A stretch of DNA of 20,450 bases from a virus: IMG/VR virus record IMGVR_UViG_3300045988_136351; one strand, 5' to 3'. A program made the position numbers and the translations under genes. Position 1 is the first letter of the stretch. Each line of letters opens with the position of its first letter. The notes beneath the pieces are model-generated. The model was given only the letters and a program-made list of their open reading frames with translations, was not told where the DNA came from and ran no database searches. Shown here in pieces: positions 1 through 18,942 of this stretch.

Positions 1-110
1 TGTGTAGTGTCAGCATAACCATGTTCCCCATTGGCGCACACATGTTCACAGAACACGAACACACATAGGATAATATTAGTTAACACTAACTAACACAATA
101 CAACACCGCC

Positions 111-190
111 TCGCTCCGCTCGGTGTTGGTTCGCTCCGCTCACCTTGGACTCGCTCCGCTCGGTGTAGTCTCACTCTGTTCGACTCACCT
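111..190 (+). repeat. Four tandem 20-bp units inside the left ITR; three have an identical GC-rich core TCGCTCCGCTC
   Basis: Units are 111-130 tcgctccgctcggtgttggt, 131-150 tcgctccgctcaccttggac, 151-170 tcgctccgctcggtgtagtc and a degenerate 171-190 tcactctgttcgactcacct. The period is exactly 20 bp. Confidence 0.9.
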
Positions 191-330
191 CACCACACCA
201 TACTACATAGCACATTATTACACATCACACCACACACCACACTACATTACACGCCACTACACAAGAATGTTCCACGTGAAACAATGACACACACGGCTCG
301 GTTGTGGATTATGTGAAATTACAAAAACAC

Positions 331-358
331 TTGTATTCTAGAATAGGTGTGCTATACT
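331..358 (+). promoter_or_regulatory. Early promoter inside the left ITR, reading inward
   Basis: -35 TTGTAT (331-336), 16-nt spacer, extended -10 TGcTATACT (350-358). The spacer contains the 10-bp palindrome ATTCTAGAAT (335-344). SD GAAGGAGGG and the ATG at 386 lie downstream. Confidence 0.6.
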
Positions 359-385
359 ATAGGTGAAAAGAAGGAGGGCTACAAC

Positions 386-628
386 ATGACTAAAGAAAAA
401 TATAAAGAGTACATTCAAAAACAATATGATTATGTACTAGAACAAATTAGTGGATGGCATGAGTCCGTTAATGTGTTAAAATCTTTATCTGATTATATTA
501 GTGATTGTATTGATATAACTGAGGGTATCTATAATGATAAAGATATCGATTTTCAATCTTACTCTGAATTAAGTGAAATGATTAATTACAAATTTAGAGA
601 AGTTTGTAGGATTGTAAAGAAGGGCTAG
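386..628 (+). CDS. Hypothetical early protein (80 aa), mildly acidic
   Basis: The track ORF 347..628 starts at a GTG with no SD. The ATG at 386 sits 6-7 nt after GAAGGAGGG. The first 10 nt of the CDS lie inside the ITR. Confidence 0.7.
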   Translation: MTKEKYKEYIQKQYDYVLEQISGWHESVNVLKSLSDYISDCIDITEGIYNDKDIDFQSYSELSEMINYKFREVCRIVKKG

Positions 629-1322: not shown

Positions 1323-2339
1323 TTAATATTTACTTAATATATAACTTAATAATCGTTTCGTTTCTTGGTTGTTGTAATACACGCAACCATCTCGATATGA
1401 TCGTATTAGCATGTTTAGTCTTTGGTCTTTACGCCATAATTTCGCGATCATCATATTTTCACGATTGTTACTTCCAATGGAATAACAATATCCGTATTCT
1501 TTGTTTATCTGTTGATTGATATATACATAGCCTGTATTCATATCTATCCAAACACCATAGTAAATATCATCATAGTATAATGTACATAAATAATTACATA
1601 CATTCGTTTTCTTTTTAATAAAGTCGTTTGTATCATATGCAAACTTACCAGCGTTATATTCTCCGTATGTAGTACCGGATATTAATTTATGAAATTTCGA
1701 TTTTTCTTTGTTTCCTTTTTTATATTCATTGTGACAGATTTGGACTACAATTTGCTCGACGGACTCACTACCTTTAAATGTATTAAATTCCTTATTGGGG
1801 TCGGGTGTGATACCAAAATAACTAAAATAAGGGTTAACGATACTTGCGTTATTTGCTAGTAAATATACATGTCCTTCTCGCTGTCTAAATATAGAGTCAA
1901 TAATATTTAATAATATTTCAACTTCATTCGGAATGTATGCGTTAAATCCTGCCTTTTCCGGTATAAACTCGTCAACAATAATTGTATCAATATCTACATA
2001 ACTTGTTGATTTTAAACTTGCAAACGCTGTTAGCGATGTTGCGTATCCCATCTCACAGCCATTGATATAAAAGGTGGTAAAATTACTACCACCTGTGATT
2101 TTAAATTCGTCATCTTTGAAATTTTCAAATTGATCGTTTAAAAATGTTTTGATTTTCTTTAGGTCTGTTTTGTAACGACGTAGATAAAGAAATTGTTTTC
2201 CTTTTTTCTTGTATCGACTGATACAGTCTTTTTTAAATCCATAGGTTTTACCAATTCCACGACCGCCAATGATGAAATTTAGAAATTTATTATATGACTT
2301 TATGTTGGTGGGACTGTACCAATCAATTGACTTTGTCAT
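1323..2339 (-). CDS. DNA encapsidation (packaging) ATPase, phi29 gp16-like
   Basis: Walker A GGRGIGKT and Walker B IIVDEF. The N-terminal string SYNKFLNFIIGGRGIGKTY...QFLYLRRYK parallels phi29 gp16 as I recall it. The start overlaps the lysin stop (ATGA). Confidence 0.93.
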   Translation of the reverse strand: MTKSIDWYSPTNIKSYNKFLNFIIGGRGIGKTYGFKKDCISRYKKKGKQFLYLRRYKTDLKKIKTFLNDQFENFKDDEFKITGGSNFTTFYINGCEMGYATSLTAFASLKSTSYVDIDTIIVDEFIPEKAGFNAYIPNEVEILLNIIDSIFRQREGHVYLLANNASIVNPYFSYFGITPDPNKEFNTFKGSESVEQIVVQICHNEYKKGNKEKSKFHKLISGTTYGEYNAGKFAYDTNDFIKKKTNVCNYLCTLYYDDIYYGVWIDMNTGYVYINQQINKEYGYCYSIGSNNRENMMIAKLWRKDQRLNMLIRSYRDGCVYYNNQETKRLLSYILSKY

Positions 2340-3061
2340 TTGAATACTCCATATGGCAAGTAATTAATACCCTTTGAATTTAATTCACCGCCAGCCATCC
2401 ATCTACGTTTACCGCTATTACTAATCCAACTAATCCATACATATCCATCACGCTTTACATATCCGTCATATCGTACACTCATACCATTCGTATAATATAG
2501 ACCCGTGTCATTTCCTTTTTGGCTTGGCGCTTCTCTAATTTTAATTGTGCAATTTGGGTAGAAAGTACCATATTCCTTAATAAAATCTTTTGGAATTTCG
2601 TTTAACACCTTTTCACTTTTTTCATCACTTAAAATCATGGCTTTAGGCATAAAAGCGGTATCGAATGTAGCTGAATATGGTAGTGAAACAATATTCACTA
2701 AACCGTTCTTATCACCTTGGTTTGCACCTAAAAAGCGACCGTATACACCGTTTATATCGCTATCAAAAATCGCGACATGACTCCATGGCGTAATATTTGG
2801 TACCTCTTTAAATACAACGATTGCACCTGGCTGTAATTCTGTAATTTCAAGACAATTGTATGTCATTCCATTTGTTTGTCGGTTCAACCAAATATCTTTA
2901 ACGTATCCGCTAGATGTGCAATCAGCACCTTTAAATCCGTTCTTTTCGCACCAGTCAAAATACAAATCCCAACATTGCGAGCCGTAAGCTCCATCACGAT
3001 CTACATATGTACCTAATACTTTTCGCCTATAATCATAATATTTATTTACATTAATATTCAT
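2336..3061 (-). CDS. Endolysin with N-terminal CHAP domain and C-terminal SH3b-type wall-binding domain
   Basis: CHAP-type Cys (GSQCWDL) and His (WSHVAIFD). The C-terminal region IKIREAPS...GYVWISWISNSGKRRWMAGG is SH3_5-like. Strong SD AGGAGGT. Confidence 0.88.
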   Translation of the reverse strand: MNINVNKYYDYRRKVLGTYVDRDGAYGSQCWDLYFDWCEKNGFKGADCTSSGYVKDIWLNRQTNGMTYNCLEITELQPGAIVVFKEVPNITPWSHVAIFDSDINGVYGRFLGANQGDKNGLVNIVSLPYSATFDTAFMPKAMILSDEKSEKVLNEIPKDFIKEYGTFYPNCTIKIREAPSQKGNDTGLYYTNGMSVRYDGYVKRDGYVWISWISNSGKRRWMAGGELNSKGINYLPYGVFK

Positions 3062-3792: not shown

Positions 3793-4734
3793 TTAATCAC
3801 CTTCTTTTTTAGTTGCTAAATCATCTTTAAAATCTGAAAGTTTTGTATCACCATTTAATTCAATCAATTTTAAAATATCCTCAAAGTCCTCATATGGTGC
3901 AAACTCAACACTCGCGTTTAAATTAAATTTCTTGTTTAATTCTTCAATCGCTTTTTTACGCTCACTAAGCCAAATATTACGAGACGCAATAACCTGTTGA
4001 TTGTTCGCGTTAACCTCATCCGCTACTAATCGCTCTTTTTTGTCCATGTTCGCATTTTCAATTCCTAATAAAGTCATGCACTCACGCAAAATTGCTTGTT
4101 TCATGCCGTGCAATTCATCCGCAATAAAAGGTGCATTTGTTTGTAGTACTTTAACGTCTTCCGTTCTAAATCCTTTTGAAGTAAAGATCGTTTGAACCCC
4201 TTGTAAAATCTTTTTTATAAACACTTTGAATTGTTGTAACATACGTTTATCACCTGTAATGATGTACGGCGTCCATTGCATGGTCAAATTTTGGTCCATT
4301 GTGCGACTCGTTAAAGCTAGTTTTTTAGCGAAAAAGTTTAAGTATGGAAAAATACCAACATATAAAGGACTGTTCTTCATAATAACACACTCTTCATTTG
4401 ATAAATTCTTTTTAACAAGTGGACTTGTTGAAACGGTATGATATTCGGTTGGCATTTGATAGTGGTTTAACTTACCGCCTAATGTGATTTCACTACAGAT
4501 TAAGCCTAACCTTTCATCATCATAAAAGCCAATGTAACCACGTGTTTGTAAAACATATTCTAAATAGAATGTATTAATGGACTCCGGCAAACCTTTATAT
4601 TTAAACATATTTAAACTCAACATTTGTAAATACGTATAATAAATAAAATCAGCCTCTCCATTATTCATCGTAGCAACATCTACCGCGTTCCTACAATAAT
4701 CTGTGAACGAACTTGTATTATTCAATAAATCCAT
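3793..4734 (-). CDS. Portal / upper collar connector protein, phi29 gp10-like
   Basis: YLQMLSLNMFKYKGLPESINTFYLE...GYIGFY and LGIENANMDKKERLVADEV parallel phi29 gp10 (LQSLAYQLFEWENLPPTIN...GYVGFY; LGIKNANLEKKERMVTDEV). The SD-supported ATG is at 4734; the track start is 4743. Confidence 0.9.
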   Translation of the reverse strand: MDLLNNTSSFTDYCRNAVDVATMNNGEADFIYYTYLQMLSLNMFKYKGLPESINTFYLEYVLQTRGYIGFYDDERLGLICSEITLGGKLNHYQMPTEYHTVSTSPLVKKNLSNEECVIMKNSPLYVGIFPYLNFFAKKLALTSRTMDQNLTMQWTPYIITGDKRMLQQFKVFIKKILQGVQTIFTSKGFRTEDVKVLQTNAPFIADELHGMKQAILRECMTLLGIENANMDKKERLVADEVNANNQQVIASRNIWLSERKKAIEELNKKFNLNASVEFAPYEDFEDILKLIELNGDTKLSDFKDDLATKKEGD

Positions 4735-4766
4735 TTTAATCATCTCCTTTTAATTATATATTAAAT

Positions 4767-4796: not shown

Positions 4797-6986
4797 TTAA
4801 TGTACTTTTCTATTTAAGTAGTTACCGAACTTATCAATATCTTCATGTTGATATCTTTCGGTATTTACTTGATCATAATTTCCAACATTTTTATCATGCC
4901 ATAGTGTAATGCCATTATCAAATACACGTTTGATTTTTTCCAAGTCGTTCGGGTCGATATTTGTACCTTTGATATTACATTTTACAGTTTGAATATAATT
5001 CCATTTAGATTTGGTATGTAAATTTGGGTAGTCAATTGTATTAGTGGCATAACCGCGCATGTTCCATATTTGATTTAATTTATTACGGTATTCTTCAGTT
5101 GGCTTATACGCAAACAATATTAATGTGTTTAAATCTAAAGCTGTTTGTCGTAGTAAATCATTTGAGCCAGTAACAATACTATCAGCCGTGGCTTGTGCGT
5201 CATGGATACGTGCGTTGTAACTATCCATAGCGTTTTGAATATTCGTTTGATTTTGGTATCGTGTTGTTAATTGTCTTAATTGGTTTCCGATTTCGGTTGA
5301 TTGAGAATTAGCACTCGCTTGTGCATTTGCGTTTGCAAGTGCGTTTGCGTTTTGTAAGTTGGTTTGTTTTGTGTTAATTTGATTTTGCATGGCTGTTTGT
5401 CCAATGCCTAAACCAGCTCCAACCAAACTACCAACAGCACCACCAATATTACCGGTTAAAGCACTAGCTATACCACCACTTAAACCACCTATAGCGCCTA
5501 TGCTGGCATTTATCATATTTGATTTATTCTGTAGATCGTTCAAATTACTAGCTAAATTTGTATTACGTGCGGTTACACTTAAATTCAAATTATTTTGCAA
5601 GTTTGTTTGTGCACTTAACGCATTACCTGTAGCACTGGCTATAGCTGTATTTGTTTCATTTGAGCGTCTAATATTGGATAATCCAACGTTCATAGAGTTA
5701 CGTGAAGATTGTAGCATTAACGCGGTTGTGTCACTAATAATAGGTAAACTTGATTCATATTGAGATTCAAAAGAGTTATCTAAGTTTAACATAATATTAT
5801 TACCGATAGAATTTTTTTTAACTTTATAATTAATTGGAACTACATTCATTTTAGACGAGTTTGGTGAGCCAACAAAAGCGAATTGCATTTTATGTATATT
5901 TTCCCATAACTCATTTTTAAATAATTTTGTTGTTCCATTGCTATCGCTTAACACAAAATAACTATAAGGATACCATAGCATTTTAGTGTTGTCACTTGCT
6001 CCAATACCTAAATAACTCATAGCGTCTATTAACCGTGATTTTGCGAACTGGTCTGAACTTGAATCATACATACTTGACATAACATATGGCTTATAGGTCA
6101 GTATAGTATAGTCACCTTCCATTTTATTCTCAAAACAGTCTCTTTTTATGATGATTTGGTTATCTTCTACTACTAAACCGGGAATTGAATTCGTTACAAC
6201 AATAGAAACACATTTACCTACTAATACCTCCGATGTTCGAATTGCGTTCATGATCTCGCTTAAACCTGTAATACTTACAACCGTGCCGGATGTTGAACCT
6301 ATTTTCAATGTTTTTATGTCACCGCCTGTAATTCGTGAAAAAGGAAAAATATAATAATTAATTTGTGATGGACTTCCTAGTGTTCCATGTGTATATGTGT
6401 CTTTTCCGTCCATTGTACAAGTCATACCAATAATAGCATAACTTCTATCTTGATTCGGATCTAATCTAATATTGTTTTCACTAATCAAATCCGTACCAAT
6501 TTCCAAATTTTCGGGTTGTGTATTAATACATGGATAATATTGATTATCTTGTGTGTAAAATTGTGGTCTATGCTCATATGCGATGTATGACTCCATGAAA
6601 TTACTTTCAATCTCAAACCGCCAAGTCTGTATTACATCTGTTTCAAAACTAATACTAGTCGCATTGTCGTTTAGATATCCTAAACTTGTGATAAAGCAAT
6701 AAATCCATTTTGCTTTATTACCGGTATTTCCATTTTGATAAATCAAATAATTGTATAAACGTAGATCATCATAAACACCCGGTACGACTACCGTACCATC
6801 TTTTCTTTGATACGTGTAATTTTCAAATACAATATGATCGTAGTTATTAATAAAAAAATTAAATTGTTTTTCGGGGGTATCGAATGCACCCCAAAATGTG
6901 TTATTCATGGCGTCAATTTCTAAACCCTTCAATAAATAAATCTTACTTTGCGGTGTAAATTGACTGTTAACGACTCCTATACTCAT
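4797..6986 (-). CDS. Tail knob protein, phi29 gp9-like, with an expanded low-complexity region and a Gly-rich hydrophobic segment
   Basis: GNKAKWIYCFITSL...FETDVIQTWRFEI and the C-terminal WNYIQTVKC...FDNGITLWHDKNVGNY parallel phi29 gp9. The SD-supported ATG is at 6986; the track start is 6995. Confidence 0.9.
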   Translation of the reverse strand: MSIGVVNSQFTPQSKIYLLKGLEIDAMNNTFWGAFDTPEKQFNFFINNYDHIVFENYTYQRKDGTVVVPGVYDDLRLYNYLIYQNGNTGNKAKWIYCFITSLGYLNDNATSISFETDVIQTWRFEIESNFMESYIAYEHRPQFYTQDNQYYPCINTQPENLEIGTDLISENNIRLDPNQDRSYAIIGMTCTMDGKDTYTHGTLGSPSQINYYIFPFSRITGGDIKTLKIGSTSGTVVSITGLSEIMNAIRTSEVLVGKCVSIVVTNSIPGLVVEDNQIIIKRDCFENKMEGDYTILTYKPYVMSSMYDSSSDQFAKSRLIDAMSYLGIGASDNTKMLWYPYSYFVLSDSNGTTKLFKNELWENIHKMQFAFVGSPNSSKMNVVPINYKVKKNSIGNNIMLNLDNSFESQYESSLPIISDTTALMLQSSRNSMNVGLSNIRRSNETNTAIASATGNALSAQTNLQNNLNLSVTARNTNLASNLNDLQNKSNMINASIGAIGGLSGGIASALTGNIGGAVGSLVGAGLGIGQTAMQNQINTKQTNLQNANALANANAQASANSQSTEIGNQLRQLTTRYQNQTNIQNAMDSYNARIHDAQATADSIVTGSNDLLRQTALDLNTLILFAYKPTEEYRNKLNQIWNMRGYATNTIDYPNLHTKSKWNYIQTVKCNIKGTNIDPNDLEKIKRVFDNGITLWHDKNVGNYDQVNTERYQHEDIDKFGNYLNRKVH

Positions 6987-7015
6987 CTTAATCATCTCCT
7001 TTTATTTTATCTTAT

Positions 7016-8492: not shown

Positions 8493-8516
8493 AAAACTAG
8501 CTTATGAGCTAGTTTT
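8493..8516 (-). terminator. Intrinsic terminator overlapping the stop of ORF 8509..8784
   Basis: Stem aaaactagct / agctagtttt with loop tatg. The sequence downstream on the - strand is T-rich. Confidence 0.65.
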
Positions 8517-8784
8517 TTTCTAAAATAATGGAAATACACGCGTCAAGATAGCATTGCCCTTTAATAGGCGTATCTGTTTTAAGCTTAGCGAAATATGGTA
8601 AATATTTCATAGCTAATTGAGTTGTTGCGTTTTGTAATTCATCTTTTGTTGTTGTAACAGTCACAGTATCCAACATTAAATAAACATAATCTATTAATTC
8701 ACTTGTGGCTGGGTCTGTGTTTGGTTGCATTAATTTACACATGTTATTATTTAATAATGATCTCTTAAGTGTATATCCTTCCAA
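8509..8784 (-). CDS. Hypothetical 91-aa ORF, possibly the C-terminal fragment of a broken tailspike gene
   Basis: TTG start with only a weak AAAGG SD. Its frame opens just upstream across a T7 homopolymer (- strand; A7 at 8797-8803 on +), 2 nt after the preceding ORF stops. Confidence 0.4.
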   Translation of the reverse strand: MEGYTLKRSLLNNNMCKLMQPNTDPATSELIDYVYLMLDTVTVTTTKDELQNATTQLAMKYLPYFAKLKTDTPIKGQCYLDACISIILEKN

Positions 8785-8786
8785 AT

Positions 8787-9068
8787 CTAAACCTTTAAAA
8801 AAACATAATCAGAATAATAAGGTGCATTTGGTAAATAGCTAAAATTATAGTTAAAATAATAATCTAATTTTTTAATATTTTTATCTTTGCTTTCTGTCAA
8901 AACATAATAAGTTTGTCCATATTTATTAATTGAAACATTATTTTCAACGGTTTGTGTTGGTTCTGTGGTCCAAGGATAAATATTTTCGCTTGTGTCACTG
9001 TACTTTTGTTGGATTTCAACTAAATTAACTTTACCTGTACCGCTGTTGATAATAGGTTTTGTATCCAT
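8787..9068 (-). CDS. Hypothetical 93-aa ORF, possibly an internal fragment of a broken tailspike gene
   Basis: There is no recognisable SD before the ATG at 9068. It overlaps the end of ORF 9020..10165 in another frame. The beta-rich sequence IINSGTGKVNLVEI resembles a beta-helix rung. Confidence 0.4.
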   Translation of the reverse strand: MDTKPIINSGTGKVNLVEIQQKYSDTSENIYPWTTEPTQTVENNVSINKYGQTYYVLTESKDKNIKKLDYYFNYNFSYLPNAPYYSDYVFLKV

Positions 9069-10165
9069 AATATTGTTTTCAAGCCATAAACTACACTCAT
9101 TTTTGCATTAAAAATTGCATTCACTTTTAATGTTGAATATTTAATATTAACAGTTGGCAAAACCGTGTTATTTGTGCTATACACATCAACTAAATATTTA
9201 TTATTGTTTGAAATATCACAATTATTAAATGTTATTTGTTGTTTCTCCACACTACTTATATTCGGTAGAAGAAAGGTGTTTGCATTATCATAAGTACTAA
9301 TATAACAATTATTAAAATCAAAATTATCAAGCGAACCAAATAATTCAATTGTTCCATTCGGCTCAAATTTTGAGAAAGTGCAATTATTAAATATAAATTT
9401 ACCACCAATATATCCAGCGATAATACTAGTTCTTTGTTTATAGTCATCATCATAATAAAATAATGTTTTATTAATACTATAAACCACACCATTGAATTCA
9501 TTAGTGGCATTAATAAGTTGTGTATTTTGCAATTTACATTCATCTAATAATAAATGCTCTAGCGTGTTAGTTCTAGATGAGATATTATTAAATAAATAAT
9601 TAATATCAACAAAATTACAATGCTTAAATTGAGATGAAAAAAAGTTTTCAGTTAGCGGTAAATTACTTTGTACATCACGCCCAAATGCGATATTACTAAA
9701 CACACAATTTTTTATTTGTTTTGTAAACGTGTTGTTGCCTAATATAATCGTGCTATTAGTACCTATTATATTTGTATCACTAATATTCGTTAGAGTTCCA
9801 TTAATTAAATACATTTTATTACTTAATAAAATATATTTATGGTTTGCGTTTGCACTACCAAAACATTCAGTAAATGCCCTGCTATCATCCGTAACACCAT
9901 CACCTACAGCTCCAAAGTTTTCGGGTAATAAGAAAGGAAAATCATTATTTTTTGTTACTTCCTGCCATAGTGTGCTTTTAAAAGTTTCTAGATTCATGTT
10001 AACTAGATCCTCAACCGTTGTGTTTAATGTTGGTTGTAATTCGGTCCATTTTTCATCAAACTTAGTATTTGTTGTTGTTTGAGCCAGTTCAATAACTTGA
10101 GGTTTTAACTCTTCCCATTTTTCATTGAATGTTGTTGTATGATCGTAGGTTTTAATTTTTCCCAT
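9020..10165 (-). CDS. Tailspike / pre-neck-appendage-like protein, right-handed beta-helix (pectin-lyase fold) part
   Basis: ENFGAVGDGVTDDSRAF is the classic N-terminal motif of pectate-lyase-type beta-helix tailspikes, and N-rich rung-like repeats follow. The ATG at 10165 abuts GAGGA with zero spacing, which makes a poor RBS. The N-terminus continues the FNxxWExLKP repeat of the upstream ORF. Confidence 0.7.
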   Translation of the reverse strand: MGKIKTYDHTTTFNEKWEELKPQVIELAQTTTNTKFDEKWTELQPTLNTTVEDLVNMNLETFKSTLWQEVTKNNDFPFLLPENFGAVGDGVTDDSRAFTECFGSANANHKYILLSNKMYLINGTLTNISDTNIIGTNSTIILGNNTFTKQIKNCVFSNIAFGRDVQSNLPLTENFFSSQFKHCNFVDINYLFNNISSRTNTLEHLLLDECKLQNTQLINATNEFNGVVYSINKTLFYYDDDYKQRTSIIAGYIGGKFIFNNCTFSKFEPNGTIELFGSLDNFDFNNCYISTYDNANTFLLPNISSVEKQQITFNNCDISNNNKYLVDVYSTNNTVLPTVNIKYSTLKVNAIFNAKMSVVYGLKTILWIQNLLSTAVQVKLI

Positions 10166-10375
10166 TCCTCATTAAATTTATTAGTTGTTGTTTCTTCCAC
10201 TAATGTAATAACTTGTGGTTTTAAAATATCCCATTGTTTTTTAAATTCGGCGTCTGTTGTATCCTGTGCCAATTTAATAACAACCGGTTTTAAATCTTCC
10301 CATGCCTTATTGAATGTTTCAATTGTTAAATTTGTAACTAGTTCAATTACTTGAGGTTTTAGAATTGACCATTTA
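10032..10375 (-). repeat. Diverged 69-nt (23-aa) tandem repeat array spanning the 10105..10710 / 9020..10165 junction
   Basis: The Trp-codon anchor (CCAT on +) falls at 10045, 10114, 10161, 10230, 10299 and 10368. Spacings are 69, 47, 69, 69 and 69 nt. Confidence 0.85.
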
Positions 10376-10710
10376 TAGTCGAATTCCTCATCTGTCCATT
10401 CTTTCGTTGCTTGCTCTAATAATGGCACTACTGTATTCCATGCCTCAATTGTTTCATTCATAGCCGTTACGAGTGTATAAACGTACCCTTGTAAATAGTT
10501 TAAACATTGATAGACATTCATACCCGTATTGAATGCACTCACATATTGCTGAGCTAAATTCTTACCACTTAACTTTAAAGGCTCGAACTCCGGTAAAAAG
10601 TTATTGATCTCAAATTCTTCATGTAACTCTGAACCGGAAATACTTTCGCTTTCACTCGTCGATGTTTCACTTGAATTTAAAATATTTTGTTTTATTTTAT
10701 CAAAATCCAT
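10105..10710 (-). CDS. Fibre/tailspike N-terminal anchor plus repeat rod; paralog of 11826..12650 and truncated by a frameshift
   Basis: NFLPEFEPLKLSGKNLAQQYVSAFNTGMNVYQCLNYLQGY closely matches NFLPKFDEVKLSGKNLAQNYVSEFNTGMNIYQCLNYLQGY of the 274-aa protein. 23-aa repeats follow. The SD-supported ATG is at 10710; the track start is a GTG at 10719. Confidence 0.7.
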   Translation of the reverse strand: MDFDKIKQNILNSSETSTSESESISGSELHEEFEINNFLPEFEPLKLSGKNLAQQYVSAFNTGMNVYQCLNYLQGYVYTLVTAMNETIEAWNTVVPLLEQATKEWTDEEFDYKWSILKPQVIELVTNLTIETFNKAWEDLKPVVIKLAQDTTDAEFKKQWDILKPQVITLVEETTTNKFNEEWEKLKPTIIQQHSMKNGKS

Positions 10711-10711
10711 A

Positions 10712-11047
10712 CTATTCACCTTCTTTATATCCGATCAGTTCTTTTAGTTTATCCGGTAAGATATCACTATTGATTTTAGAAATGTTTTCGATAATACTAA
10801 CCACCTCTGTAATAATTGCATATGTACAAATAACCGGCACTAAATCAACTCCAAAAGGTAAAGTTAAATAAGTTTCCGCATAGTTAATAGCAATACCTAA
10901 AGTGTAACAAAAGATAAAGCCAACCTTTTTAAAAAGCCCGTCTCTTAATTTGTTCGATTTGATTTGTTCACCTTCTCGTAAAGCTCCAACGATACCTGTC
11001 ACCAAATCCAAACCATTAAAAACCAATGCTACTAAAATAATTTTCAT
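10712..11047 (-). CDS. Holin, three transmembrane segments (Phage_holin_4-like)
   Basis: MKIILVALVFNGLDLVTGIVGAL..., then GFIFCYTLGIAINY and LVPVICTYAIITEVVSII, with a charged C-terminus. SD AGAGGTGA lies 6 nt before the ATG at 11047; the track start is 11065. Confidence 0.8.
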   Translation of the reverse strand: MKIILVALVFNGLDLVTGIVGALREGEQIKSNKLRDGLFKKVGFIFCYTLGIAINYAETYLTLPFGVDLVPVICTYAIITEVVSIIENISKINSDILPDKLKELIGYKEGE

Positions 11048-11077
11048 TTTAATCACCTCTTTCATTTTCTATAATAT

Positions 11078-11106
11078 AAAAAAATAGTTGAATGTTCAAC
11101 TATTTT
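11078..11106 (-). terminator. Intrinsic terminator after ORF 11107..11826; second copy of the 32-nt element
   Basis: Sequence is identical to 7013..7044 (tataaaaaaatagttgaatgttcaactatttt). Confidence 0.75.
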
Positions 11107-11826
11107 CTAATTTCCTATTTTTCCTTGTCCTAACCATTTTCCATTTTTACGAATTCGGCTCGTACCTTGGTTTTCTTTTCCTACTTTATCATAACTATAT
11201 TTTGCTATATCCTTCCATGAGTTTGATTTTCGTATCTTTAAAAATCCACTGTCTTTATTCAATGATTTTAATACGCCACTTTTACGAATACCCCACGGTC
11301 TAAAGTCGGGAATAACTTGTTGAATACTGTAAATATTCGAGTGTGGAAAAGCTACATTCTCACCTTGTAATTCAATTTTAACGTGTGTAGTATCATTTGA
11401 TAATTGAATAAATTTACTCCACTGGCTCGCTCTTGCCGTACCATCCCATCCTTGCATATAGTTTAAAGGCATTTGTCCGGTATGCGTAAATATCTTTTCT
11501 CTTAATAATTGTGTCCATGTGGCTTGATTGTCTGTTGACTTAGAAACAATAATAAAATAGTTATATGTATCAGTAGTATCACCAACATAATAACCATCCG
11601 CCACATACTGCTGAGCGTCTGTTATAGCATATCCGACTAAATCTAAAATAAATGTTACACCATAATTTCCATTATCCGAGAAATTAATACCTTTACCATA
11701 TCCGGACGCGTGCGCTGTTGCTAATGGTGCTCCAAACGGTCCTGTGTTGTCCGGTGAGCCACCTAAAACAACATTTGCATACGGTCCGGTGTTATCAAAT
11801 GCACCATAAAAATATTGCCATGCCAT
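11107..11826 (-). CDS. Hypothetical structural protein (239 aa), candidate distal receptor-binding partner of the 274-aa fibre
   Basis: Its start overlaps the upstream stop (TAATG), implying translational coupling. It lies in the late structural block. The C-terminus has three IRK(S/N)(G/N) motifs. No family was recognised. Confidence 0.6.
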   Translation of the reverse strand: MAWQYFYGAFDNTGPYANVVLGGSPDNTGPFGAPLATAHASGYGKGINFSDNGNYGVTFILDLVGYAITDAQQYVADGYYVGDTTDTYNYFIIVSKSTDNQATWTQLLREKIFTHTGQMPLNYMQGWDGTARASQWSKFIQLSNDTTHVKIELQGENVAFPHSNIYSIQQVIPDFRPWGIRKSGVLKSLNKDSGFLKIRKSNSWKDIAKYSYDKVGKENQGTSRIRKNGKWLGQGKIGN

Positions 11827-12650
11827 TATACACCACCAGCCAAATCATTTTCACTAGTACCGTTATTTGTACGGATGTATGAACCGCCGTCAACACTTCC
11901 ACCAAAAATATTAATATTACCTGTAGCGATGTTTCTACCGTCTGTCATATGACCGTCAAAAATCGTATCACCCGTTTGTGTCCAAGCTCCACTATTCTTT
12001 AAGTTAGTTAACAAGATAGATAAATCGTCATACATTTTACCGATTTTAGAATCTTGATTATCAATATAATTATTAATAGTATTGTTAACATATTGCGTTA
12101 ACTCCGGTTTTAATTCTTCCCATGACTGGTTGAATTGATTGATTGTTGTTTGTTTCGTCAACTCAATCACTTGAGGTTTTAATTCTTCCCATGACTCATT
12201 GAATTGATTAATTGTTGTTTGTTTCGTTAGTTCAATAACTTGAGGTCTTAATTCTTCCCATTTCTCATTGAATTGATTAATCGTTGTTTGTTTTGTCAAC
12301 TCAATAACTTGTGGTTTTAATTCCGCCCAGTGCTTATCAAATTCACTTTTAGACAGTTCAATACAATATTTAATCATTTCCTCGATGTTTTTATTCCATT
12401 TTTTAACAACATCGTTAACAGCTTTAACCAGCCAACCAATATAACCTTGTAAATAATTTAAACATTGGTAAATATTCATACCCGTGTTAAATTCACTCAC
12501 ATAATTTTGAGCTAAATTTTTACCGCTTAATTTTACCTCGTCAAATTTCGGTAAAAAATTATCAATATCTATTTTGATTTCTTGGTTTTGCTCAAACTGT
12601 TCTTTGATTGTTTTACTTGCTGATTGTTTCTCTTTAGTTTTTCTTAACAT
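11826..12650 (-). CDS. Fibre protein with conserved N-terminal anchor domain and a 23-aa repeat rod
   Basis: Strong SD GAAGGTGGTGA. Repeat units are near-identical (WEELRPQVIELTKQTTINQFNE...). The N-terminal domain is paralogous to that of 10105..10710. It occupies the phi29 head-fibre/appendage position after the capsid gene. Confidence 0.7.
   Translation of the reverse strand: MLRKTKEKQSASKTIKEQFEQNQEIKIDIDNFLPKFDEVKLSGKNLAQNYVSEFNTGMNIYQCLNYLQGYIGWLVKAVNDVVKKWNKNIEEMIKYCIELSKSEFDKHWAELKPQVIELTKQTTINQFNEKWEELRPQVIELTKQTTINQFNESWEELKPQVIELTKQTTINQFNQSWEELKPELTQYVNNTINNYIDNQDSKIGKMYDDLSILLTNLKNSGAWTQTGDTIFDGHMTDGRNIATGNINIFGGSVDGGSYIRTNNGTSENDLAGGV
12106..12335 (-). repeat. Near-identical 69-nt tandem repeats (about 3.3 copies) inside the fibre gene
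   Basis: The anchor CCCAT/CCCAG on + falls at 12119, 12188, 12257 and 12326, exactly 69 nt apart. Units are mostly identical at nucleotide level. Confidence 0.9.
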
Positions 12651-12805: not shown

Positions 12806-14155
12806 CTATACGTTATATACAACCTTAATATCACAAGTTACCTCGGAAACTGTATCTTTAATTGTTACAGTTGCTAAACCTTCCGCGTCAATAGCCTCTA
12901 AACATTCAATTTTAACGTGTTTCAAATCGCTTTCGATTGTAGCTTTAACTTTATCATCAACACTAGATGTAGCCGTCAAACTATACTTAGCATTTAAACC
13001 ACTTGTCTGAACTGTAAATGGTACGGTAATAGTCGCACCTTTACGAACTTCAACAACTTGTGGGTTTGAGTAAATAGCTGTAACTTTTTCCTCAACATTT
13101 CCGGATACAAACGCAATCGCATTTGCAAAACGGCTTGTTGCGATACCTTCCCAGTGGTGCAAGAAGTAATTCCAATATAATCCTTTAGCATTATACGCAA
13201 CACCTACGCTATATTTTTGGTCAAATACTCTATAAATTTCTGAATCACACACAATTGCCTCAATAGTACCTTGTGCCGTGCTTGGTAAAGTCGGTAGCAC
13301 TAATACATGAGTTTTGAATTGTGCAAACTCTAATTGGAATGTCTGAGCTAACCAATCAATATTTAAGTAGCTATTTGTTTTACCGTTTAGGATGACATAA
13401 ATATCATCGTATTCGTTTTGCTTTGTGACAGCCATAGCGTTATATTCGTTTGTTGGTTCTGTTAAATAAGATACGTATTCTGTAATTTTACGCGCTAACT
13501 CTTTCGCTGTATCCGTATCTGTTACGGCGTTCGTATTTACGATCTTCATATGTCCATTTTCATAATGAGTGACTAAAGCGGATTTCATATAATTATAATC
13601 ATCCTTATTATCACCATTATACATAGAATCAACAATTCGAGCAATCAAACTGTTTACACCATCCCAAGTTACAAAATACTTTCTTAAATCATCATCTGTA
13701 ATTGTAGCTGGATAGTATGACTTTCTGTTTACTACATAGAAAGCTGTTTTAATGTCTGGTAAACTTCTCTTAAAAAGAGTGTTTTCCGCGTCCGCCTGAT
13801 CGTATGCGTGCTCTTTAGCGCACTCAACGAAATACTCTTCCATAGTATAACCTAAAGGCATGTTCTCCATTTTAAATGGCGCTAGTTTGTTCGTTAAAAT
13901 ATTACGGTGTGCAATCACTTTACCAATACGTGTAGCTAAATTCATGAACTCAACACCTAAAGTATCCGGATATTCTAATAAACCGTTCATGAACTCTAAA
14001 GAGCTTGTTTCGTTTGGGTCACTAATTGTACTTCTAAAATTGCTAGAACTCATTGCGTACATAGCACTGGCGACTTCTTGACCGGTTGGTTCATGGTCCA
14101 TACCTAAGTCATTTTGTAACGTTTTAGTTACGTCTTTTCCTGTTGTTTTTGACAT
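12806..14155 (-). CDS. Major capsid protein, phi29 gp8-like, with a C-terminal Ig-like (BIG2-type) domain
   Basis: GLYWNYFLHHWEGIATSRFANAIAFVSGNV parallels phi29 gp8 [30 protein letters not shown]. At 449 aa it is nearly the same length. The beta-rich C-terminal 90 aa are typical of BIG2 domains. Confidence 0.93.
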   Translation of the reverse strand: MSKTTGKDVTKTLQNDLGMDHEPTGQEVASAMYAMSSSNFRSTISDPNETSSLEFMNGLLEYPDTLGVEFMNLATRIGKVIAHRNILTNKLAPFKMENMPLGYTMEEYFVECAKEHAYDQADAENTLFKRSLPDIKTAFYVVNRKSYYPATITDDDLRKYFVTWDGVNSLIARIVDSMYNGDNKDDYNYMKSALVTHYENGHMKIVNTNAVTDTDTAKELARKITEYVSYLTEPTNEYNAMAVTKQNEYDDIYVILNGKTNSYLNIDWLAQTFQLEFAQFKTHVLVLPTLPSTAQGTIEAIVCDSEIYRVFDQKYSVGVAYNAKGLYWNYFLHHWEGIATSRFANAIAFVSGNVEEKVTAIYSNPQVVEVRKGATITVPFTVQTSGLNAKYSLTATSSVDDKVKATIESDLKHVKIECLEAIDAEGLATVTIKDTVSEVTCDIKVVYNV

Positions 14156-14448: not shown

Positions 14449-14473
14449 TTTTTACACATCCCTTCTATTTATT

Positions 14474-14502
14474 AATATATGCTAATAATATTTTAAAGTC
14501 AA
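14474..14502 (-). promoter_or_regulatory. Candidate late promoter upstream of the scaffold gene
   Basis: On the - strand: -35 TTGACT (14502-14497), 17-nt spacer, -10 TATATT (14479-14474). It lies immediately downstream of the terminator at 14511..14534. Confidence 0.45.
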
Positions 14503-14504
14503 TA

Positions 14505-14658
14505 AAAAATAAAACCCTCTTTTACGAGGGTTTTAAAAATATAGGTTGTAAAGTTTAAAGTGTTACCAGCTAGATTACTATTACTAATTATGTTGCTAGC
14601 ACGTTTCACCGCGAGTAAACCTAACATACATGTCTGATTTCCGTTCTTTATTCCTTAC
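14505..14658 (-). ncRNA. Non-coding RNA of about 150 nt with its own promoter and terminator; candidate prohead/packaging RNA (pRNA)
   Basis: No ORF is present. A near-consensus promoter lies just upstream and a terminator at the 3' end. A predicted 5'/3' helix pairs GUAAGGAAUAAAG (14658-14646) with CUUUAAACUUUAC (14560-14548), giving 11 of 13 pairs. Internal stacked hairpins are also predicted. All phi29-like phages need a pRNA and none is otherwise accounted for here. Confidence 0.5.
14511..14534 (-). terminator. Intrinsic terminator closing the ncRNA unit
   Basis: Stem aaaaccctc / gagggtttt with a 6-nt loop, followed on the - strand by ATTTTTTATT. Confidence 0.8.
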
Positions 14659-14664
14659 GGTCAT

Positions 14665-14693
14665 ATAATACCATGTTATTTACTTTTTGCCAA
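14665..14693 (-). promoter_or_regulatory. Strong sigma-A-type promoter driving the ncRNA unit
   Basis: On the - strand: -35 TTGGCA (14693-14688), 17-nt spacer ending in TGg, -10 TATTAT (14670-14665). It overlaps the 3' end of ORF 14676..14897. Confidence 0.65.
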
Positions 14694-15438: not shown

Positions 15439-17265
15439 TTATCTACTTTTAATACTGAATTGTCTATCGACTAATACAATACCACCAGGAACATGTGTTT
15501 TCTTTAAGCAATCATTAATTACATTTCCAACTCTAAAATTATCATATGTTACATTCTGTTTAGCTTTTTGCGTCATACCAGCGCACTTTACATTCAAATA
15601 ATAACAAACACCCTCACGGATATAATACAAATTATCTTTACAGTCGTTTTCACTAATAAATTCTTGTTGGTGCTCTACATATTCCTTATAACTGATTTCG
15701 ATTTCTTCCACATAGGATTTAGCACCAATAAAATAAGATCGTGTAAACACTGATTCTAAACCCCAATAACCTAATTCCTTATCGTCAATAATATCTTTAA
15801 TAGCGTCCGGAACTTGTGTACCTACTAAATGTATTGAATCCGTATCAATATATGCGACTCTATGGATACCTACTTTTTGCGCGGTACTAATTGTATATTT
15901 ACGCGCGTATGCTGTTACAAATTCACCGTAAGGTAAATAAATAGGATCCCTAAATTGTTCGTCAATAACCTCTTTCACTTCTCCATCTTCATAAGTAGTA
16001 AACATAGGATCGTGAAGTCTTAATACGCCATCATCTTTATCAATAAATGGAATTTTAGGTGTAATATTTGGGTTCGTTGCGAACTTGCCGTAAACTGAAT
16101 TTAATTGTCTTTTGGCAATAAAACGTTGTGCACCTTTTGAGTTTTTCTTAACTTCCATTTGTTCATCTATAAATTGCCGTGCAATTCCTACACATCCTCT
16201 AAATTTATAGCCATTAATGAACTCTACATCATAAATATCATATTGTTCATTAAATAACTGCCAATCAACACTCGTAACAGTCATTCTAACGATATCACCG
16301 TTTGAACTATCTACGTATTTTTTACTACCAAAAAATCGACTAAACTTATCTAAGCTAATGCATGGTATATGATCTTTTTTAATGTCAAAAGCAAAACTAA
16401 CAACACCTACCCATAGTGGATATTCATCATCCTGTTGGTATTCACCTTCAAAATATATAGGTGTATCATACGGCAATAATTCATAATACATACGACTCGG
16501 AAAAAGTGAATTTACGTCAAATACTATCCCTTGTCCTATCTCTTTTTCTTTTAGTTCCGGGTTTGCCCAAACGAAACCGCCACTATAAGCCGGTCTTAAA
16601 TCACTATCCACACTCATTTCTAAAGGTGGGAATATCTTTTCAAAACTCATAGACAGTGTTTTCTTGAAAGCCTCAAAACTACAGCTTGTGGCTGTCATTT
16701 TATTAAATCCAAGCTTAAAACATTCATTCAATGCCATACCTTCAATGTCGATATCATTAAAAAGATAATCCACCTCATGTGGTGTTAGCTTGTGTCCTAT
16801 TTCACGTTTAGCCTTATAATCTAATTTCAATTTACGTATTGGTAAATTAAAATCATGTGCGATCTTCTCAATACTAAATGGGATTAATTTAAAGCTATCC
16901 CATATTGTAGTTTTTGTTGACCGATAAATTGAGTACTTCCACCATATTTCAATAGAGTACCACAAACCAGTATTAGAGATTATTGTTTTAAAACACCCGG
17001 TTTTAGGCTTGTCCGAATATTCATAACCATTTGATAATAACCAACTAACAATAAACTCACCATCAAAAGCAAGATTATGAAAATATAATTTACGTGTTTT
17101 CTGTTGACACCACTCAAAAAAACCATATATAGAATTTCCATATTCTTTTATACTTAAATCACTTACCAGGCTAGCGCCCCAAGCCCATACCCTACAGTCT
17201 AAAGGGTCGGTTGTAGTCTCAAAGTCGCACGCCCAAATTTCTTTGGGCTCTTTTTTCTTTGTCAT
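15439..17265 (-). CDS. Protein-primed family B DNA polymerase, phi29 gp2-like
   Basis: Exo I DFETTT, Exo II HNLAFDGEF, Exo III YLFNDIDI, motif A DVNSLFPS, motif B KRQLNSVYGKFA, motif C YIDTDSIH, and KCAGM. SD AAGGGGGT. Confidence 0.97.
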   Translation of the reverse strand: MTKKKEPKEIWACDFETTTDPLDCRVWAWGASLVSDLSIKEYGNSIYGFFEWCQQKTRKLYFHNLAFDGEFIVSWLLSNGYEYSDKPKTGCFKTIISNTGLWYSIEIWWKYSIYRSTKTTIWDSFKLIPFSIEKIAHDFNLPIRKLKLDYKAKREIGHKLTPHEVDYLFNDIDIEGMALNECFKLGFNKMTATSCSFEAFKKTLSMSFEKIFPPLEMSVDSDLRPAYSGGFVWANPELKEKEIGQGIVFDVNSLFPSRMYYELLPYDTPIYFEGEYQQDDEYPLWVGVVSFAFDIKKDHIPCISLDKFSRFFGSKKYVDSSNGDIVRMTVTSVDWQLFNEQYDIYDVEFINGYKFRGCVGIARQFIDEQMEVKKNSKGAQRFIAKRQLNSVYGKFATNPNITPKIPFIDKDDGVLRLHDPMFTTYEDGEVKEVIDEQFRDPIYLPYGEFVTAYARKYTISTAQKVGIHRVAYIDTDSIHLVGTQVPDAIKDIIDDKELGYWGLESVFTRSYFIGAKSYVEEIEISYKEYVEHQQEFISENDCKDNLYYIREGVCYYLNVKCAGMTQKAKQNVTYDNFRVGNVINDCLKKTHVPGGIVLVDRQFSIKSR

Positions 17266-17283: not shown

Positions 17284-18117
17284 TTATTTATATCTAACCA
17301 TACCGTCACTAACATAAGCACGTCCGGTAAACACAGCTAAACTATCTTTTACATCGCTTAAATCTTCTCTTATAGCTTTACTTAATTGCTCGTTTACAAA
17401 TTTCTGGTTTTCTGTGTATTCACGGCTTAAATCCAGGTATTTAAAAGTATCTATCGCTTTTCGTTCTTGATACAACCATTTTAATAATTCTTTATCTGAT
17501 AATGATCTCATGTCTTTTAAAATTTGTTGCCCTTCTTCCTCTGTTATATTGTGCCCTCGTATTTGTTTTTCTATAGCTGTTTTATAATTCTCTCGAAACG
17601 TAGTAATTTTCTTATTTTTCTTTTTCGTATTTTCCTTTAGGCTTTCAATCCTATTTTTTAATTGTTTAGGATATCTATACGATTGGATATTAACATGATG
17701 AACCGGCTCAAAAAAACCGCCTCTATCATCTTTTAATACTGATAAAGCCTGTCGGACTGAAATATTTGTTGATATACCGCCCTTTGTTTCTTTCAAATTA
17801 TTTAGCCCAACACTACGAACTAACTTTTTTCTTTGTTTGTTCTGTTTATCCACTAACTTATTAGCCTGCTCGATGTCGTTACGGTTAAACACAACACCAT
17901 ACCGATTTTTTATATATCTATTTTCTTTGTTGAATTTTTCAATTGATTTTAAGTATTTATTAAATTCCTTACGATCTTTAAAATCTTTTATAGAACGAAT
18001 GTCATTAAAAACAACATCCTGCCCTAAATTTTGCGCTTTTGTAGCAGTTCGTTTAGCACTTGCTATAGCATTTCTAAGTCGTTTTACATCTTTCGTACTT
18101 TTTCGCATTTTAGCCAT
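17284..18117 (-). CDS. Terminal protein (replication primer), phi29 gp3-like
   Basis: Lies directly upstream of the polymerase and is basic. FKDRKEFNKYLKSIEKFNKENRYIKNRYGVV parallels phi29 TP FETRAQFNKWKEQASSFTNRANMRYQFEKNAYGVV. The SD-supported ATG is at 18117; the track start is a GTG at 18126. Confidence 0.88.
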   Translation of the reverse strand: MAKMRKSTKDVKRLRNAIASAKRTATKAQNLGQDVVFNDIRSIKDFKDRKEFNKYLKSIEKFNKENRYIKNRYGVVFNRNDIEQANKLVDKQNKQRKKLVRSVGLNNLKETKGGISTNISVRQALSVLKDDRGGFFEPVHHVNIQSYRYPKQLKNRIESLKENTKKKNKKITTFRENYKTAIEKQIRGHNITEEEGQQILKDMRSLSDKELLKWLYQERKAIDTFKYLDLSREYTENQKFVNEQLSKAIREDLSDVKDSLAVFTGRAYVSDGMVRYK

Positions 18118-18146
18118 TTTAAACACCCCCTTTTAAGCCAAAATAA

Positions 18147-18180: not shown

Positions 18181-18582
18181 CTATTTTACAGCCATGCTTA
18201 AATATTTATTCGTGCTTGAGTTTGATTTTTTCTGAATGATTGTCACACATACCGGTTCTTTTGTCCAATCATAGTTAAATACTTGTTTAAGTTGCTTTAA
18301 TGATTGCAAGAAAGGTTTACTATTTGTAGCATATGCTTTACCTTCTTTATCAATTACAGTGATTAGTTTACTACAAATAATCTCACCTGTTTTATCATTT
18401 TCCTTTTCTACATCTTGCACGATGTAACCCGTCAAATACAAGTCCTTACCTACTTGATCGCTTAGACCTTCCGCATTATTTACCGCGTTGAATAAGTTAA
18501 CGCGTTGCTCGTGAGTCATGTCCTCAGTTACAACCAAACCTGTGTTTTCCATTGCCATTACTTCATTTCCTAAATTTTCCAT
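18181..18582 (-). CDS. Single-stranded DNA-binding protein, phi29 gp5-like
   Basis: The MEN.. start, LFNAVNN, ITVIDKEGKAYATNSK..L..L and VTIIQKKSNSSTNKYLSM align in order with phi29 p5 (IFNAQTG, TTIFAADGSLYSAISK, VKVVQGTSSKGNVFFSL). Position and size (133 aa) also match. Strong SD AAAGGAG. Confidence 0.7.
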   Translation of the reverse strand: MENLGNEVMAMENTGLVVTEDMTHEQRVNLFNAVNNAEGLSDQVGKDLYLTGYIVQDVEKENDKTGEIICSKLITVIDKEGKAYATNSKPFLQSLKQLKQVFNYDWTKEPVCVTIIQKKSNSSTNKYLSMAVK

Positions 18583-18705: not shown

Positions 18706-18942
18706 TTAATGTCTTACATGGCACACCTCCATTAATTCATCATATTTCATATTTATTAATACAAACCACATAACTAACATTACAATTGATATTATAATGA
18801 AATTTATGTATCTGTTTGATACCTTATAGTATTTAAAATTACCTTTACATTGTTGGTATATTTGGTAAACAGATAATACAACACATAATAACCAACTTGC
18901 AAGTATTAAATTATTGTAAATACTCATAACCGCGTCTCTCAT
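18706..18942 (-). CDS. Small early membrane protein with two TM segments
   Basis: TM segments are ILASWLLCVVLSVYQIY and FIIISIVMLVMWFVLI. The start is uncertain (ATG at 18942 or 18927). Confidence 0.55.
   Translation of the reverse strand: MRDAVMSIYNNLILASWLLCVVLSVYQIYQQCKGNFKYYKVSNRYINFIIISIVMLVMWFVLINMKYDELMEVCHVRH

Follow-up and report, generated by a model that had tools for sequence, protein, structure and literature searches.

Protein-primed replication is understood mainly from phage phi29, with its 6-bp inverted terminal repeat (ITR) and its protein p6, and from adenovirus, and little is known of the contents of long phage ITRs. p6 binds duplex DNA with a periodicity of about 24 bp and low sequence specificity. 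In adenovirus and in the pGKL linear plasmids, a long ITR carries a conserved terminal core origin followed by a variable factor-binding region, the latter being made up of duplex sites for NFI and Oct-1 (adenovirus) or TRF1 (pGKL). Phi29 uses Spo0J/parS sites for spore entrapment, and p6, Spo0A and parS sites are located near its genome ends (PMC2731898). Here, we analyzed the complete linear genome of 20,450 bp held in IMG/VR record IMGVR_UViG_3300045988_136351 (hereafter the window), a phi29-like podophage from human-gut metagenomes with ITRs at both ends, and in particular an array of GC-rich 20-nt repeats inside each ITR.

Small DNA hairpins with related sequences have been described elsewhere. 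The early promoters of phage N4 contain a GC-rich heptamer, GCGGAGC, flanked by arms that need only to pair, and are extruded in vivo; single-stranded DNA-binding protein (SSB) melts the C-rich hairpin and leaves the G-rich one (PMC4496689). At Streptomyces telomeres, 3'-strand hairpins whose loops are closed by sheared G:A pairs are bound by Tap, which in turn recruits the terminal protein (TP) (PMC4513846). Mini-hairpins at the single-strand origins of G4, St-1, alpha3 and RSF1010 ssiA were proposed to be SSB-refractory marks on single-stranded DNA intermediates, and GCGNAGC hairpins melt at ~76 °C, are nuclease-resistant, bind SSB poorly and lie beyond standard energy parameters (PMC13037366). 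A further motif, the CGAG block, forms tandem sheared G:A pairs in a pyrimidine-GA-purine context (PMC10085684).

The array of the window is composed of repeats conserved in phase, the flanks of which covary so as to preserve pairing, and it matches two well-characterised motifs of stable hairpins, namely the GCGNAGC heptamer and the CGAG block. We tentatively read it, at slightly less than an even chance, as a tandem row of small DNA stem-loops acting as an accessory, dispensable enhancer of origin use, and not as duplex sites aligned on one helical face; the function of the array, and any protein that would bind it, are what we infer from these patterns.

The repeat array and the pairing of its units

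The core TCGCTCCGCTC was found exactly at 111-121, 131-141 and 151-161 in the left ITR and, as mirror copies, at 20330-20340, 20310-20320 and 20290-20300 in the right ITR. In line with an earlier note on this DNA, made from the sequence alone, the spacing of the three exact cores was exactly 20/20 bp in each ITR, a fourth, degenerate unit (TCACTCTGTTC, 171-181) was located another 20 bp along, and the first core was enclosed by an exact 8-bp inverted repeat (CAACACCG at 101-108 and CGGTGTTG at 121-128), with the 3' arm beginning on the last core base. Allowing up to two mismatches, seven core sites were present in the window compared to 0.89 expected, a count reached in none of 100 dinucleotide shuffles. 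In this respect the earlier interpretation was supported, the array being non-random and located about 100 bp from each protein-primed origin. The stretch shared by units 1 and 3, previously given as 16 nt, was actually 17 nt long (110-126 = 150-166). An open reading frame (ORF) spanning the array, 123-287, was rejected as spurious, being found in only 2 of 18 array-positive genomes.

For the analysis of the flanks, every core match upstream of the promoter was collected, which resulted in an ungapped alignment of 46 distinct 23-nt units; given that units were selected on the core alone, the flanks were not chosen for pairing. Flank pairs were complementary in many versions (CGCC/GGCG, GGTC/GACC, AGTC/GACT in unit 4 of the window, GGAC/GTCC, AGGT/ACCT and AGCC/GGCT). 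When the structure ..((((..((...))..)))).. was scored, 85.9% of the cells of the outer stem and inner pairs were paired, compared to 69.9% after shuffling (a level reached in 0 of 500 shuffles) and to 14-47% when the partner column was slid by 1-3 positions. The covariation score was 0.54, against a shuffle mean of 0.23 (500 shuffles) and values of 0.04-0.17 in the slid controls. Five of the six pairs showed changes on both sides, as exemplified by columns 5 and 19 (CG in 22 units, GC in 8, TA in 6, AT in 4), and RNAalifold predicted the same stem-loop from the alignment alone.

The inner pair 9-15 was G-C in 30 units, A-T in 15 and another combination in one, which explains the 'variant' core TCACTCCGTTC. 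The former reading of the core as a CGCTC doublet leaves this concerted change from G9/C15 to A9/T15 unaccounted for. Within the window, the stem of unit 4 (AGTC...GACT) is compensated with respect to GGTC...GACC in relatives, and its inner pair is A-T, not G-C; the orthologue of unit 3 in relatives is GGAC...GTCC, and unit 1 forms a better stem in a shifted register, namely the 8-bp repeat 101-108/121-128. The hairpin that had been suggested for unit 1 was on the right track. Positions T7, C10, T16 and C17 were invariant, position 8 was C in 44 of the 46 units, and the T.C and C.T mismatches were never 'corrected' in any of them. Since these positions are invariant and the mismatches uncorrected, retention of the core appears to reflect selection rather than palindrome correction.

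As judged from the alignment, each unit corresponds to a predicted 19-nt hairpin plus one linker base (4-nt arm, 11-nt core, 4-nt arm and 1 nt), a geometry that would yield a 20-nt period without helical phasing. The proposal that the 20-bp period places the repeats on the same face of the helix is thus better replaced by one based on unit geometry, in which the arms covary to keep pairing, something that a duplex-binding protein does not require. This bears directly on an explanation that we consider unlikely, in which a sequence-specific protein of the phage or the host binds TCGCTCCGCTC as double-stranded DNA with two-turn phasing, and the nucleoprotein complex thus assembled would activate the origin or control the early promoter. 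The 11-bp core is indeed exact and maintained between diverging spacers, the 20-bp spacing is likewise retained, the units are same-orientation direct repeats within the range of ~17-22 bp near an origin that is typical of iterons, and they lie where phi29 has p6 and Spo0A sites near its ends (PMC2731898). However, flanks that change and yet stay complementary, together with the covarying inner pair, are not needed for duplex recognition, and those units spaced 24-25 bp apart (see below) have longer, interrupted stems.

A structural reading of the units as stem-loops also agrees with the composition of the G-rich strand, on which each unit reads 5'-nnn-CGAG-C-GGA-G-CGAG-nnn-3' and contains the heptamer GCGGAGC. 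The 3' end of this strand at each terminus is the template for TP-primed initiation, and its ITR is the last part to be displaced by the fork coming from the opposite end. Of the seven occurrences of GCGNAGC in the window, six fell within the arrays (0 of 100 shuffles), and in both ITRs the G-rich strand of units 1-3 contained GCGGAGC. Among the 46 distinct units, GCGNAGC was found in 21, C-GNA-G in 33 and C-ANA-G in 10, which corresponds to the mini-hairpin heptamer with two G:C pairs and a sheared G:A closing a 3-nt loop. Both GA steps were in a pyrimidine-GA-purine context in 45-46 of 46 units, with the consensus CGAG/CGAG; at the level of sequence, these are the two opposed antiparallel tetranucleotides of the tandem sheared G.A block.

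Each unit thus seems capable of adopting a highly stable DNA hairpin fold, in which an outer stem of 3-4 bp and unconstrained sequence is followed by an invariant 2x2 internal loop, an inner stem of 2 bp and a loop of 3 nt. The G-rich strand would then form a GCGNAGC mini-hairpin, capped by a GNA triloop and lengthened by two sheared G.A pairs in tandem as well as by 3-4 Watson-Crick pairs. Much poorer folding is expected of the C-rich strand, where T.C and C.T mismatches and a pyrimidine loop occupy the corresponding positions.

Occurrence of the array among relatives and its possible role

The array was surveyed in 36 contigs in which the ITR interior was available. GC-rich units were present in about 18 of them (1-7 per ITR, usually 2-4) and in none of the other 18, in which extra AT-rich palindromes were often found instead. 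Both ITRs of a genome always carried the same array. Of 42 adjacent unit pairs from approximately 20 distinct ITRs, 26 had a start-to-start spacing of 20 nt and 11 one of 24-25 nt. The array always started with ...ACACCGCC-TCGCTCCGCTC-GG and, where the terminal unit was present, ended with ...GGT-TCGCTCCGCTC-AC. The earlier note had named conservation of the motif and its phasing in related genomes as a check on its proposal, and the absence of the motif from close relatives with conserved ITRs as a point that would tell against it: core and 20-bp phasing did recur in about half of the contigs, and the other half lacked them. Beyond this group, when metagenomes were scanned for pairs of exact cores at a distance of 20 nt, 54 matches were obtained, of which only L211 and L242 were relatives, the others being unrelated high-GC tandem repeats; Cp-1, the classic long-ITR relative, has no such array.

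Because the array is absent in half of the relatives and patchily distributed on the trees, it is not essential, and the replication machinery that these phages share can do without it. The role of a p6 substitute that had been put forward for the array is thus excluded in any obligatory form, as phages with the same machinery lack it and no gene co-occurs with it. A co-evolution of the array with TP or polymerase was also discarded, given that array presence was interleaved on both trees. Regarding possible partners, the ORFs of the 18 array-positive and the 18 array-negative contigs were clustered, and the best association of a gene family with the array (11/18 vs. 0/18) was a spurious 45-aa ORF. 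As no real accessory gene co-occurred, any partner must be a core phage protein or a host protein. For duplex binding, this means that no cognate protein gene accompanies the array, and that relatives with the same core early proteins do without it. On the other hand, searches of ten small early ORFs with Pfam and PHROGs gave no p6 homolog, which would fit such a duplex array, albeit as a weak negative, p6 being small and fast-evolving.

The ITRs of the relatives share a terminal segment of ~65 bp and a promoter-proximal segment of ~130 bp, and between both lies a hypervariable stretch of short modules (GC-rich 20-nt units, AT-rich palindromes and CA-rich filler). Tandem duplications were observed of ~98 bp, twice, in L007 (1-200), of ~115 bp in L009 (1-170) and of ~61 bp, three times, in L022 (60-230), and the ITR interior appears to turn over quickly. 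Hypervariability in length and module content, these duplications, repeated array gain and loss among near-identical phages and the lack of a partner gene would all fit a non-functional by-product, arising by slippage or recombination in a non-coding ITR that is often single-stranded, or a selfish palindromic repeat. We regard this as quite improbable, since it does not explain why core positions are invariant across 46 distinct units while spacers diverge, why compensatory changes maintain the stems, why the conserved mismatches remain uncorrected, contrary to templated palindrome repair, or why the boundary units of the array are constant.

We therefore return to the row of stem-loops as an accessory enhancer of origin use. 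The hairpins would form on the single-stranded ITR during strand-displacement replication or, alternatively, would extrude, driven by negative supercoiling behind the inward-firing early promoter; the array probably acts in single-stranded or extruded form. The row would constitute a structured, nuclease-resistant and SSB-poor patch ~100-190 nt from the 3' end, which a core phage protein or a host protein could recognise, and which, once recognised, could enhance origin use on displaced strands in an accessory manner. Loop-loop 'kissing' between the two ends as nucleation of a panhandle was also considered and set aside, as the compact fold leaves only 3-nt loops.

An origin-proximal accessory role is preferred, modestly, over a promoter-linked one, because the distance of the array to the terminus is fairly constant (first core at ~100-110 in 7 of 11 complete ITRs, with a full range of ~75-153) and that to the promoter is more variable (~40 to 140 bp among relatives; about 145-225 bp upstream of the -35 hexamer in the window). 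The promoter-linked alternative holds that extruded units are read as a promoter of the early operon by a hairpin-recognising polymerase or regulator, or that they serve as a sink for the negative supercoils of the inward early promoter. It draws on the heptamer GCGGAGC and a design rule as in N4 promoters, on the location of the G-rich hairpin on the template strand of the downstream early genes, and on a polarity equal to that of the hairpin doublets described in the following paragraph. Nevertheless, no RNA-polymerase-like protein was found among the ORFs scanned, the largest unassigned ones having ≤274 aa, a probable sigma-A-type promoter is already present at 331-358, and the distance to it is long and variable, which together make this explanation improbable.

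The doublets were obtained from a degenerate double-core scan of IMG/VR, in which the matches listed came mostly from unrelated phages. Among those matches, intergenic regions of unrelated phage contigs contained hairpin doublets in which complementary arms enclose TCGCTTCGCTC (GA-GCGAAGC-GA when read on the opposite strand). Contigs with such doublets include L246 (2934-2964), L249-L252, L254, L256, L283 (2907-2937), L308 (2101-2131), L255 (10688-10718) and L258 (1398-1428), and at least ~35 of the contigs were crAss-like in size (58-102 kb) and GC (~0.31). In most cases a gene follows downstream of the doublet, its coding strand being the C-rich one, and by analogy the doublets may be N4-type hairpin promoters. 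Their recurrence suggests that phages widely reuse the GA-GCGNAGC-GA hairpin as a DNA signal. Separately, CGCTC-type repeats (TCGCTTCGCTC, followed by TCGCTCCGCTC twice) were noticed just upstream of the large terminase gene at ~760-830 of L001 and in L207, L201 and L205, which represent an unrelated small phage fragment present in several metagenomes.

Given that covariation alone cannot tell RNA from DNA, the stem-loops could in principle function in a transcript, for instance as a packaging RNA (pRNA), a stabiliser or a terminator, and a promoter-like TTCACA-18-GATAAT at 45-74 does point into the array. This candidate promoter was rejected, as its -10 hexamer is not conserved in relatives. 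No Rfam family, pRNA included, matched the ITRs at the gathering score or at E values up to 5, no intrinsic terminator with a U-tract was called in 1-400, and an essential pRNA is incompatible with a region absent from half of the relatives. Moreover, the combination of a 3-nt GNA loop and tandem GA is characteristic of stable hairpins made of DNA. We consider an RNA element highly improbable.

Several observations weigh against a row of DNA stem-loops with a role at the origin. Covariation counts overstate the number of independent events, as the units descend from one another by duplication and the genomes are closely related, although the slid controls retain this relatedness and yet score far lower; similarly, the G-C/A-T inner pair may go back to one ancestral split into two unit types. 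The outer stems of units 2 and 3 of the window are weak. Nearest-neighbour DNA folding of 96-196 was no better than that of shuffles (z = -1.1 for the G-rich and -1.8 for the C-rich strand), a null result that we treat as uninformative for this motif because the energy parameters miss mini-hairpin stability. Single changes of the G.T type and of the A.C type amounted to 16 and 11 cells, respectively, and gave no indication of the folding strand. Furthermore, ~18 of 36 close relatives, with polymerases 90-97% identical, lack the array, and its distribution is patchy on both the polymerase and the TP tree; no real accessory gene tracks it in the comparison of 18 with 18 contigs, from which no binding protein was identified. 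Finally, the array starts ~100 nt in and is thus unable to protect the terminal origin itself.

A bolder version, which we regard as rather unlikely, would see in the array a previously unrecognised class of structured-DNA origin enhancers in protein-primed phages, in which a row of mini-hairpins of the N4 or Streptomyces type on the 3' template strand would be read, single-stranded or extruded, by the TP-polymerase complex, SSB, a small early protein or a host factor, would do the job of p6, and would be exchanged as a cassette among co-circulating phages. If the hairpins are functional, non-B DNA signals would be reused across very different phage replication and transcription systems, and the units would provide a defined, synthesisable substrate for finding their protein reader. 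The natural presence/absence polymorphism among near-identical phages constitutes a ready-made genetic test.

Other elements of the ITRs and the genome

The ITR combines an origin, hairpin modules that can be exchanged, a parS site of the host and a probable early promoter into a compact control region. In the window, it is made up of the conserved origin-proximal ~65 bp, a region of variable hairpin modules, CA-rich sequence, parS, the probable early promoter, a ribosome-binding site and the first three codons, ATGACTAAAG (Table 1). In L082 (1-60), L076 (1-75) and L028 (1-10), the terminal ~65-bp segment directly follows Illumina adaptor remnants and begins with AAAGAGTGTCA; this sequence, i.e., AAAG..., is probably the true genome end. 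The window begins with TGTGT-AGTGTCA, the first 9 nt of which match 255-263 in reverse complement; the first and last 5 nt of the window (TGTGT; 1-5 and 20446-20450) are probably an assembly or amplification chimera. The end of L036 (1-46) is a 45-nt fold-back of internal ITR sequence. A heptamer resembling a Spo0A box was noted ~30 nt from the terminus in L013, L014, L016 and L059 (TGTCGAA, TGCCGAA, TGACGAA), and positions 31-37 of the window, TGGCGCA, have one mismatch to TGNCGAA; genome-wide, this motif was not enriched (5 sites vs. 7.5 expected).

With respect to the AT-rich palindrome, related AGTTAG-N6-CTAACT palindromes were found in 1-4 copies in relatives devoid of the GC-rich array, with copies located in L038 at 101-118 and 151-168, in L022 at 88-107, 149-168 and 212-227, and in L082 at 152-169, 202-217 and 241-256. 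Because its arms are conserved in sequence, we suggest that it is a putative duplex operator-type site for a dimeric protein. The literature consensus of parS is TGTTNCACGTGAAACA, and the two perfect sites of the window were the only ones in the genome (0 of 100 shuffles); the consensus was kept in 27 of 44 distinct ITRs of relatives and mutated or deleted in the others. This site, ~50 bp upstream of the early promoter, is separate from the array, whose units did not match the 16-bp palindrome, and the idea that the array itself is a partition-type site was consequently not borne out.

The region 331-395 is probably the early promoter and gene start, as deduced from its motifs and their conservation; a consensus promoter scan did not list the promoter at 331-358. 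The two terminal, inward-facing operons have identical control regions and N-terminal residues and then diverge (331-395, 20056-20120). Between the array and parS, region 186-265 exhibits a strong strand asymmetry: the strand bearing the 5' terminal protein (ACCTCACCACACCATACTAC...) is nearly free of G and thus hardly able to self-pair, and its complement is G/T-rich.

A phi29-type gene set was recognised in the window by profile searches, and GC content ranged from ~0.25 to 0.41 per 500-bp window. Besides SSB, TP and polymerase, the core early proteins include products of 78, 100 and 103 aa, encoded at 18706-18942, 18911-19213 and 19793-20104, respectively. No relatives at the DNA level were found among 50,697 reference phage records (megablast of the genome, blastn of the ITR). 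The closest cultured relatives were phi29 and B103, with a polymerase identity of 44%, and TP gave only a match of 25% identity. At least 80 close relatives with polymerase identities of 88-98% were present in IMG/VR, nearly all of them out of one large sample, plus several others. A polymerase scan of a genome collection gave a single match, a contig of a human-gut metagenome-assembled genome labelled 'Clostridia bacterium'.

The relatives form two size classes, of ~15-17 kb and ~19-20.5 kb, with the window belonging to the larger one. Genomes of the larger class have extra or different genes in the tail-fibre/tailspike region, which is 8509-12650 in the window (e.g., 9020-10165, pectate-lyase-like, and 11107-11826). 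The GC-rich array was present in nearly all large-class genomes and in some of the small class. Rfam revealed no pRNA in the window at the gathering score or at a looser threshold; a 227-nt ORF-free gap between the scaffold-like gene and its upstream gene (14449-14675) is a possible pRNA site.

Table 1. Coordinates of the array units, other ITR elements and recognised genes of the window.
Feature	Position	Strand	Basis or remark
Unit 1, CGCC-TCGCTCCGCTC-GGTG	107-125	+	G-rich strand has GCGGAGC
Unit 2, TGGT-TCGCTCCGCTC-ACCT	127-145	+	3/4 flank pairs
Unit 3, GGAC-TCGCTCCGCTC-GGTG	147-165	+	outer stem degraded: 1 Watson-Crick pair and 1 G.T
Unit 4, variant type, AGTC-TCACTCTGTTC-GACT	167-185	+	perfect 4-bp stem
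Four-unit array, mirror copy in right ITR	20266-20344	-	sequence
Left ITR	1-395	+	395 nt, 100% complementary to 20056-20450
Right ITR	20056-20450	-	exact mirror of 1-395
AT-rich palindrome 'module B', TTAGTTA-ACAC-TAACTAA	76-93 (mirror 20358-20375)	+	comparison with relatives
Perfect parS (ParB/Spo0J), TGTTCCACGTGAAACA	268-283 (mirror 20168-20183)	+	consensus match, one per ITR
Candidate early promoter, -35-like TTGTAT and extended -10 TGcTATACT	331-336 and 350-358	+	sequence, strongly conserved in relatives
Ribosome-binding site AAGGAGG; ATG and first codons	371-377; 386	+	inside ITR
gp16-type packaging ATPase	1323-2339	-	profile search
SH3_5 endolysin	2336-3061	-	profile search
Connector	3793-4743	-	profile search
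Tail knob	4797-6995	-	profile search
Holin	10712-11065	-	profile search
Major capsid protein	12806-14155	-	profile search
Protein-primed family-B DNA polymerase	15439-17265	-	profile search
Terminal protein (TP)	17284-18126	-	profile search
phi29-type SSB	18181-18582	-	profile search

Comparison with known systems

The closest resemblance in design is to the promoters of the N4 virion RNA polymerase, with which the units share GCGGAGC with a GGA triloop closed by C:G (PMC13037366, PMC4496689), flanking inverted repeats of variable bases that need only to pair, and a stable hairpin, predicted in the present case, formed by the G-rich strand that serves as template for the downstream genes. Unlike the single sites of N4, the units form tandem arrays of 2-5, lie inside an ITR, with a protein-primed origin at ~100 bp and a probable sigma-A-type promoter about 150-220 bp downstream, and have the CGAG/CGAG tandem G.A block in addition. 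Neither a virion nor any other phage RNA polymerase was found among the ORFs scanned, and because no candidate hairpin-reading RNA polymerase is encoded, the array is not a member of the N4 promoter family.

As in the Tap/Tpg system of Streptomyces telomeres, a TP-capped linear replicon carries packed small hairpins on the 3'-ending strand with, as far as the sequence indicates, sheared G:A loops. However, in Streptomyces the palindromes begin right at the terminus and are used to patch the ends once bidirectional replication from an internal origin has taken place, whereas here replication is of the phi29 type and proceeds from the ends, the terminal 65 bp are a different conserved sequence, and the array is located ~100 nt in and is dispensable in relatives. 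No match to a Tap or Tpg homolog was found among the ORFs scanned in the window. With the origins of G4, St-1, alpha3 and RSF1010 ssiA, the array shares the GCGNAGC motif, but the hairpins there are primase priming signals on circular single-stranded DNA. We know of no primase step in protein-primed replication.

With regard to the ends of protein-primed genomes, we know of no hairpin covariation at the adenovirus or pGKL sites. The similarity to phi29 lies in auxiliary elements ~50-130 bp from protein-primed origins and in host-factor sites (parS, 0A boxes) near the ends, and the parS of the ITR described here echoes the phi29 Spo0J sites. This contrasts with the p6 region, from which the array differs in its 20-bp period, its invariant 11-nt core, its sequence specificity and its pairing covariation; its behaviour is that of neither a p6 nor a parS site. 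The array is best described as a set of mini-hairpin DNA signals, already known as such, arranged here as a tandem cassette in the ITRs of a protein-primed phage.

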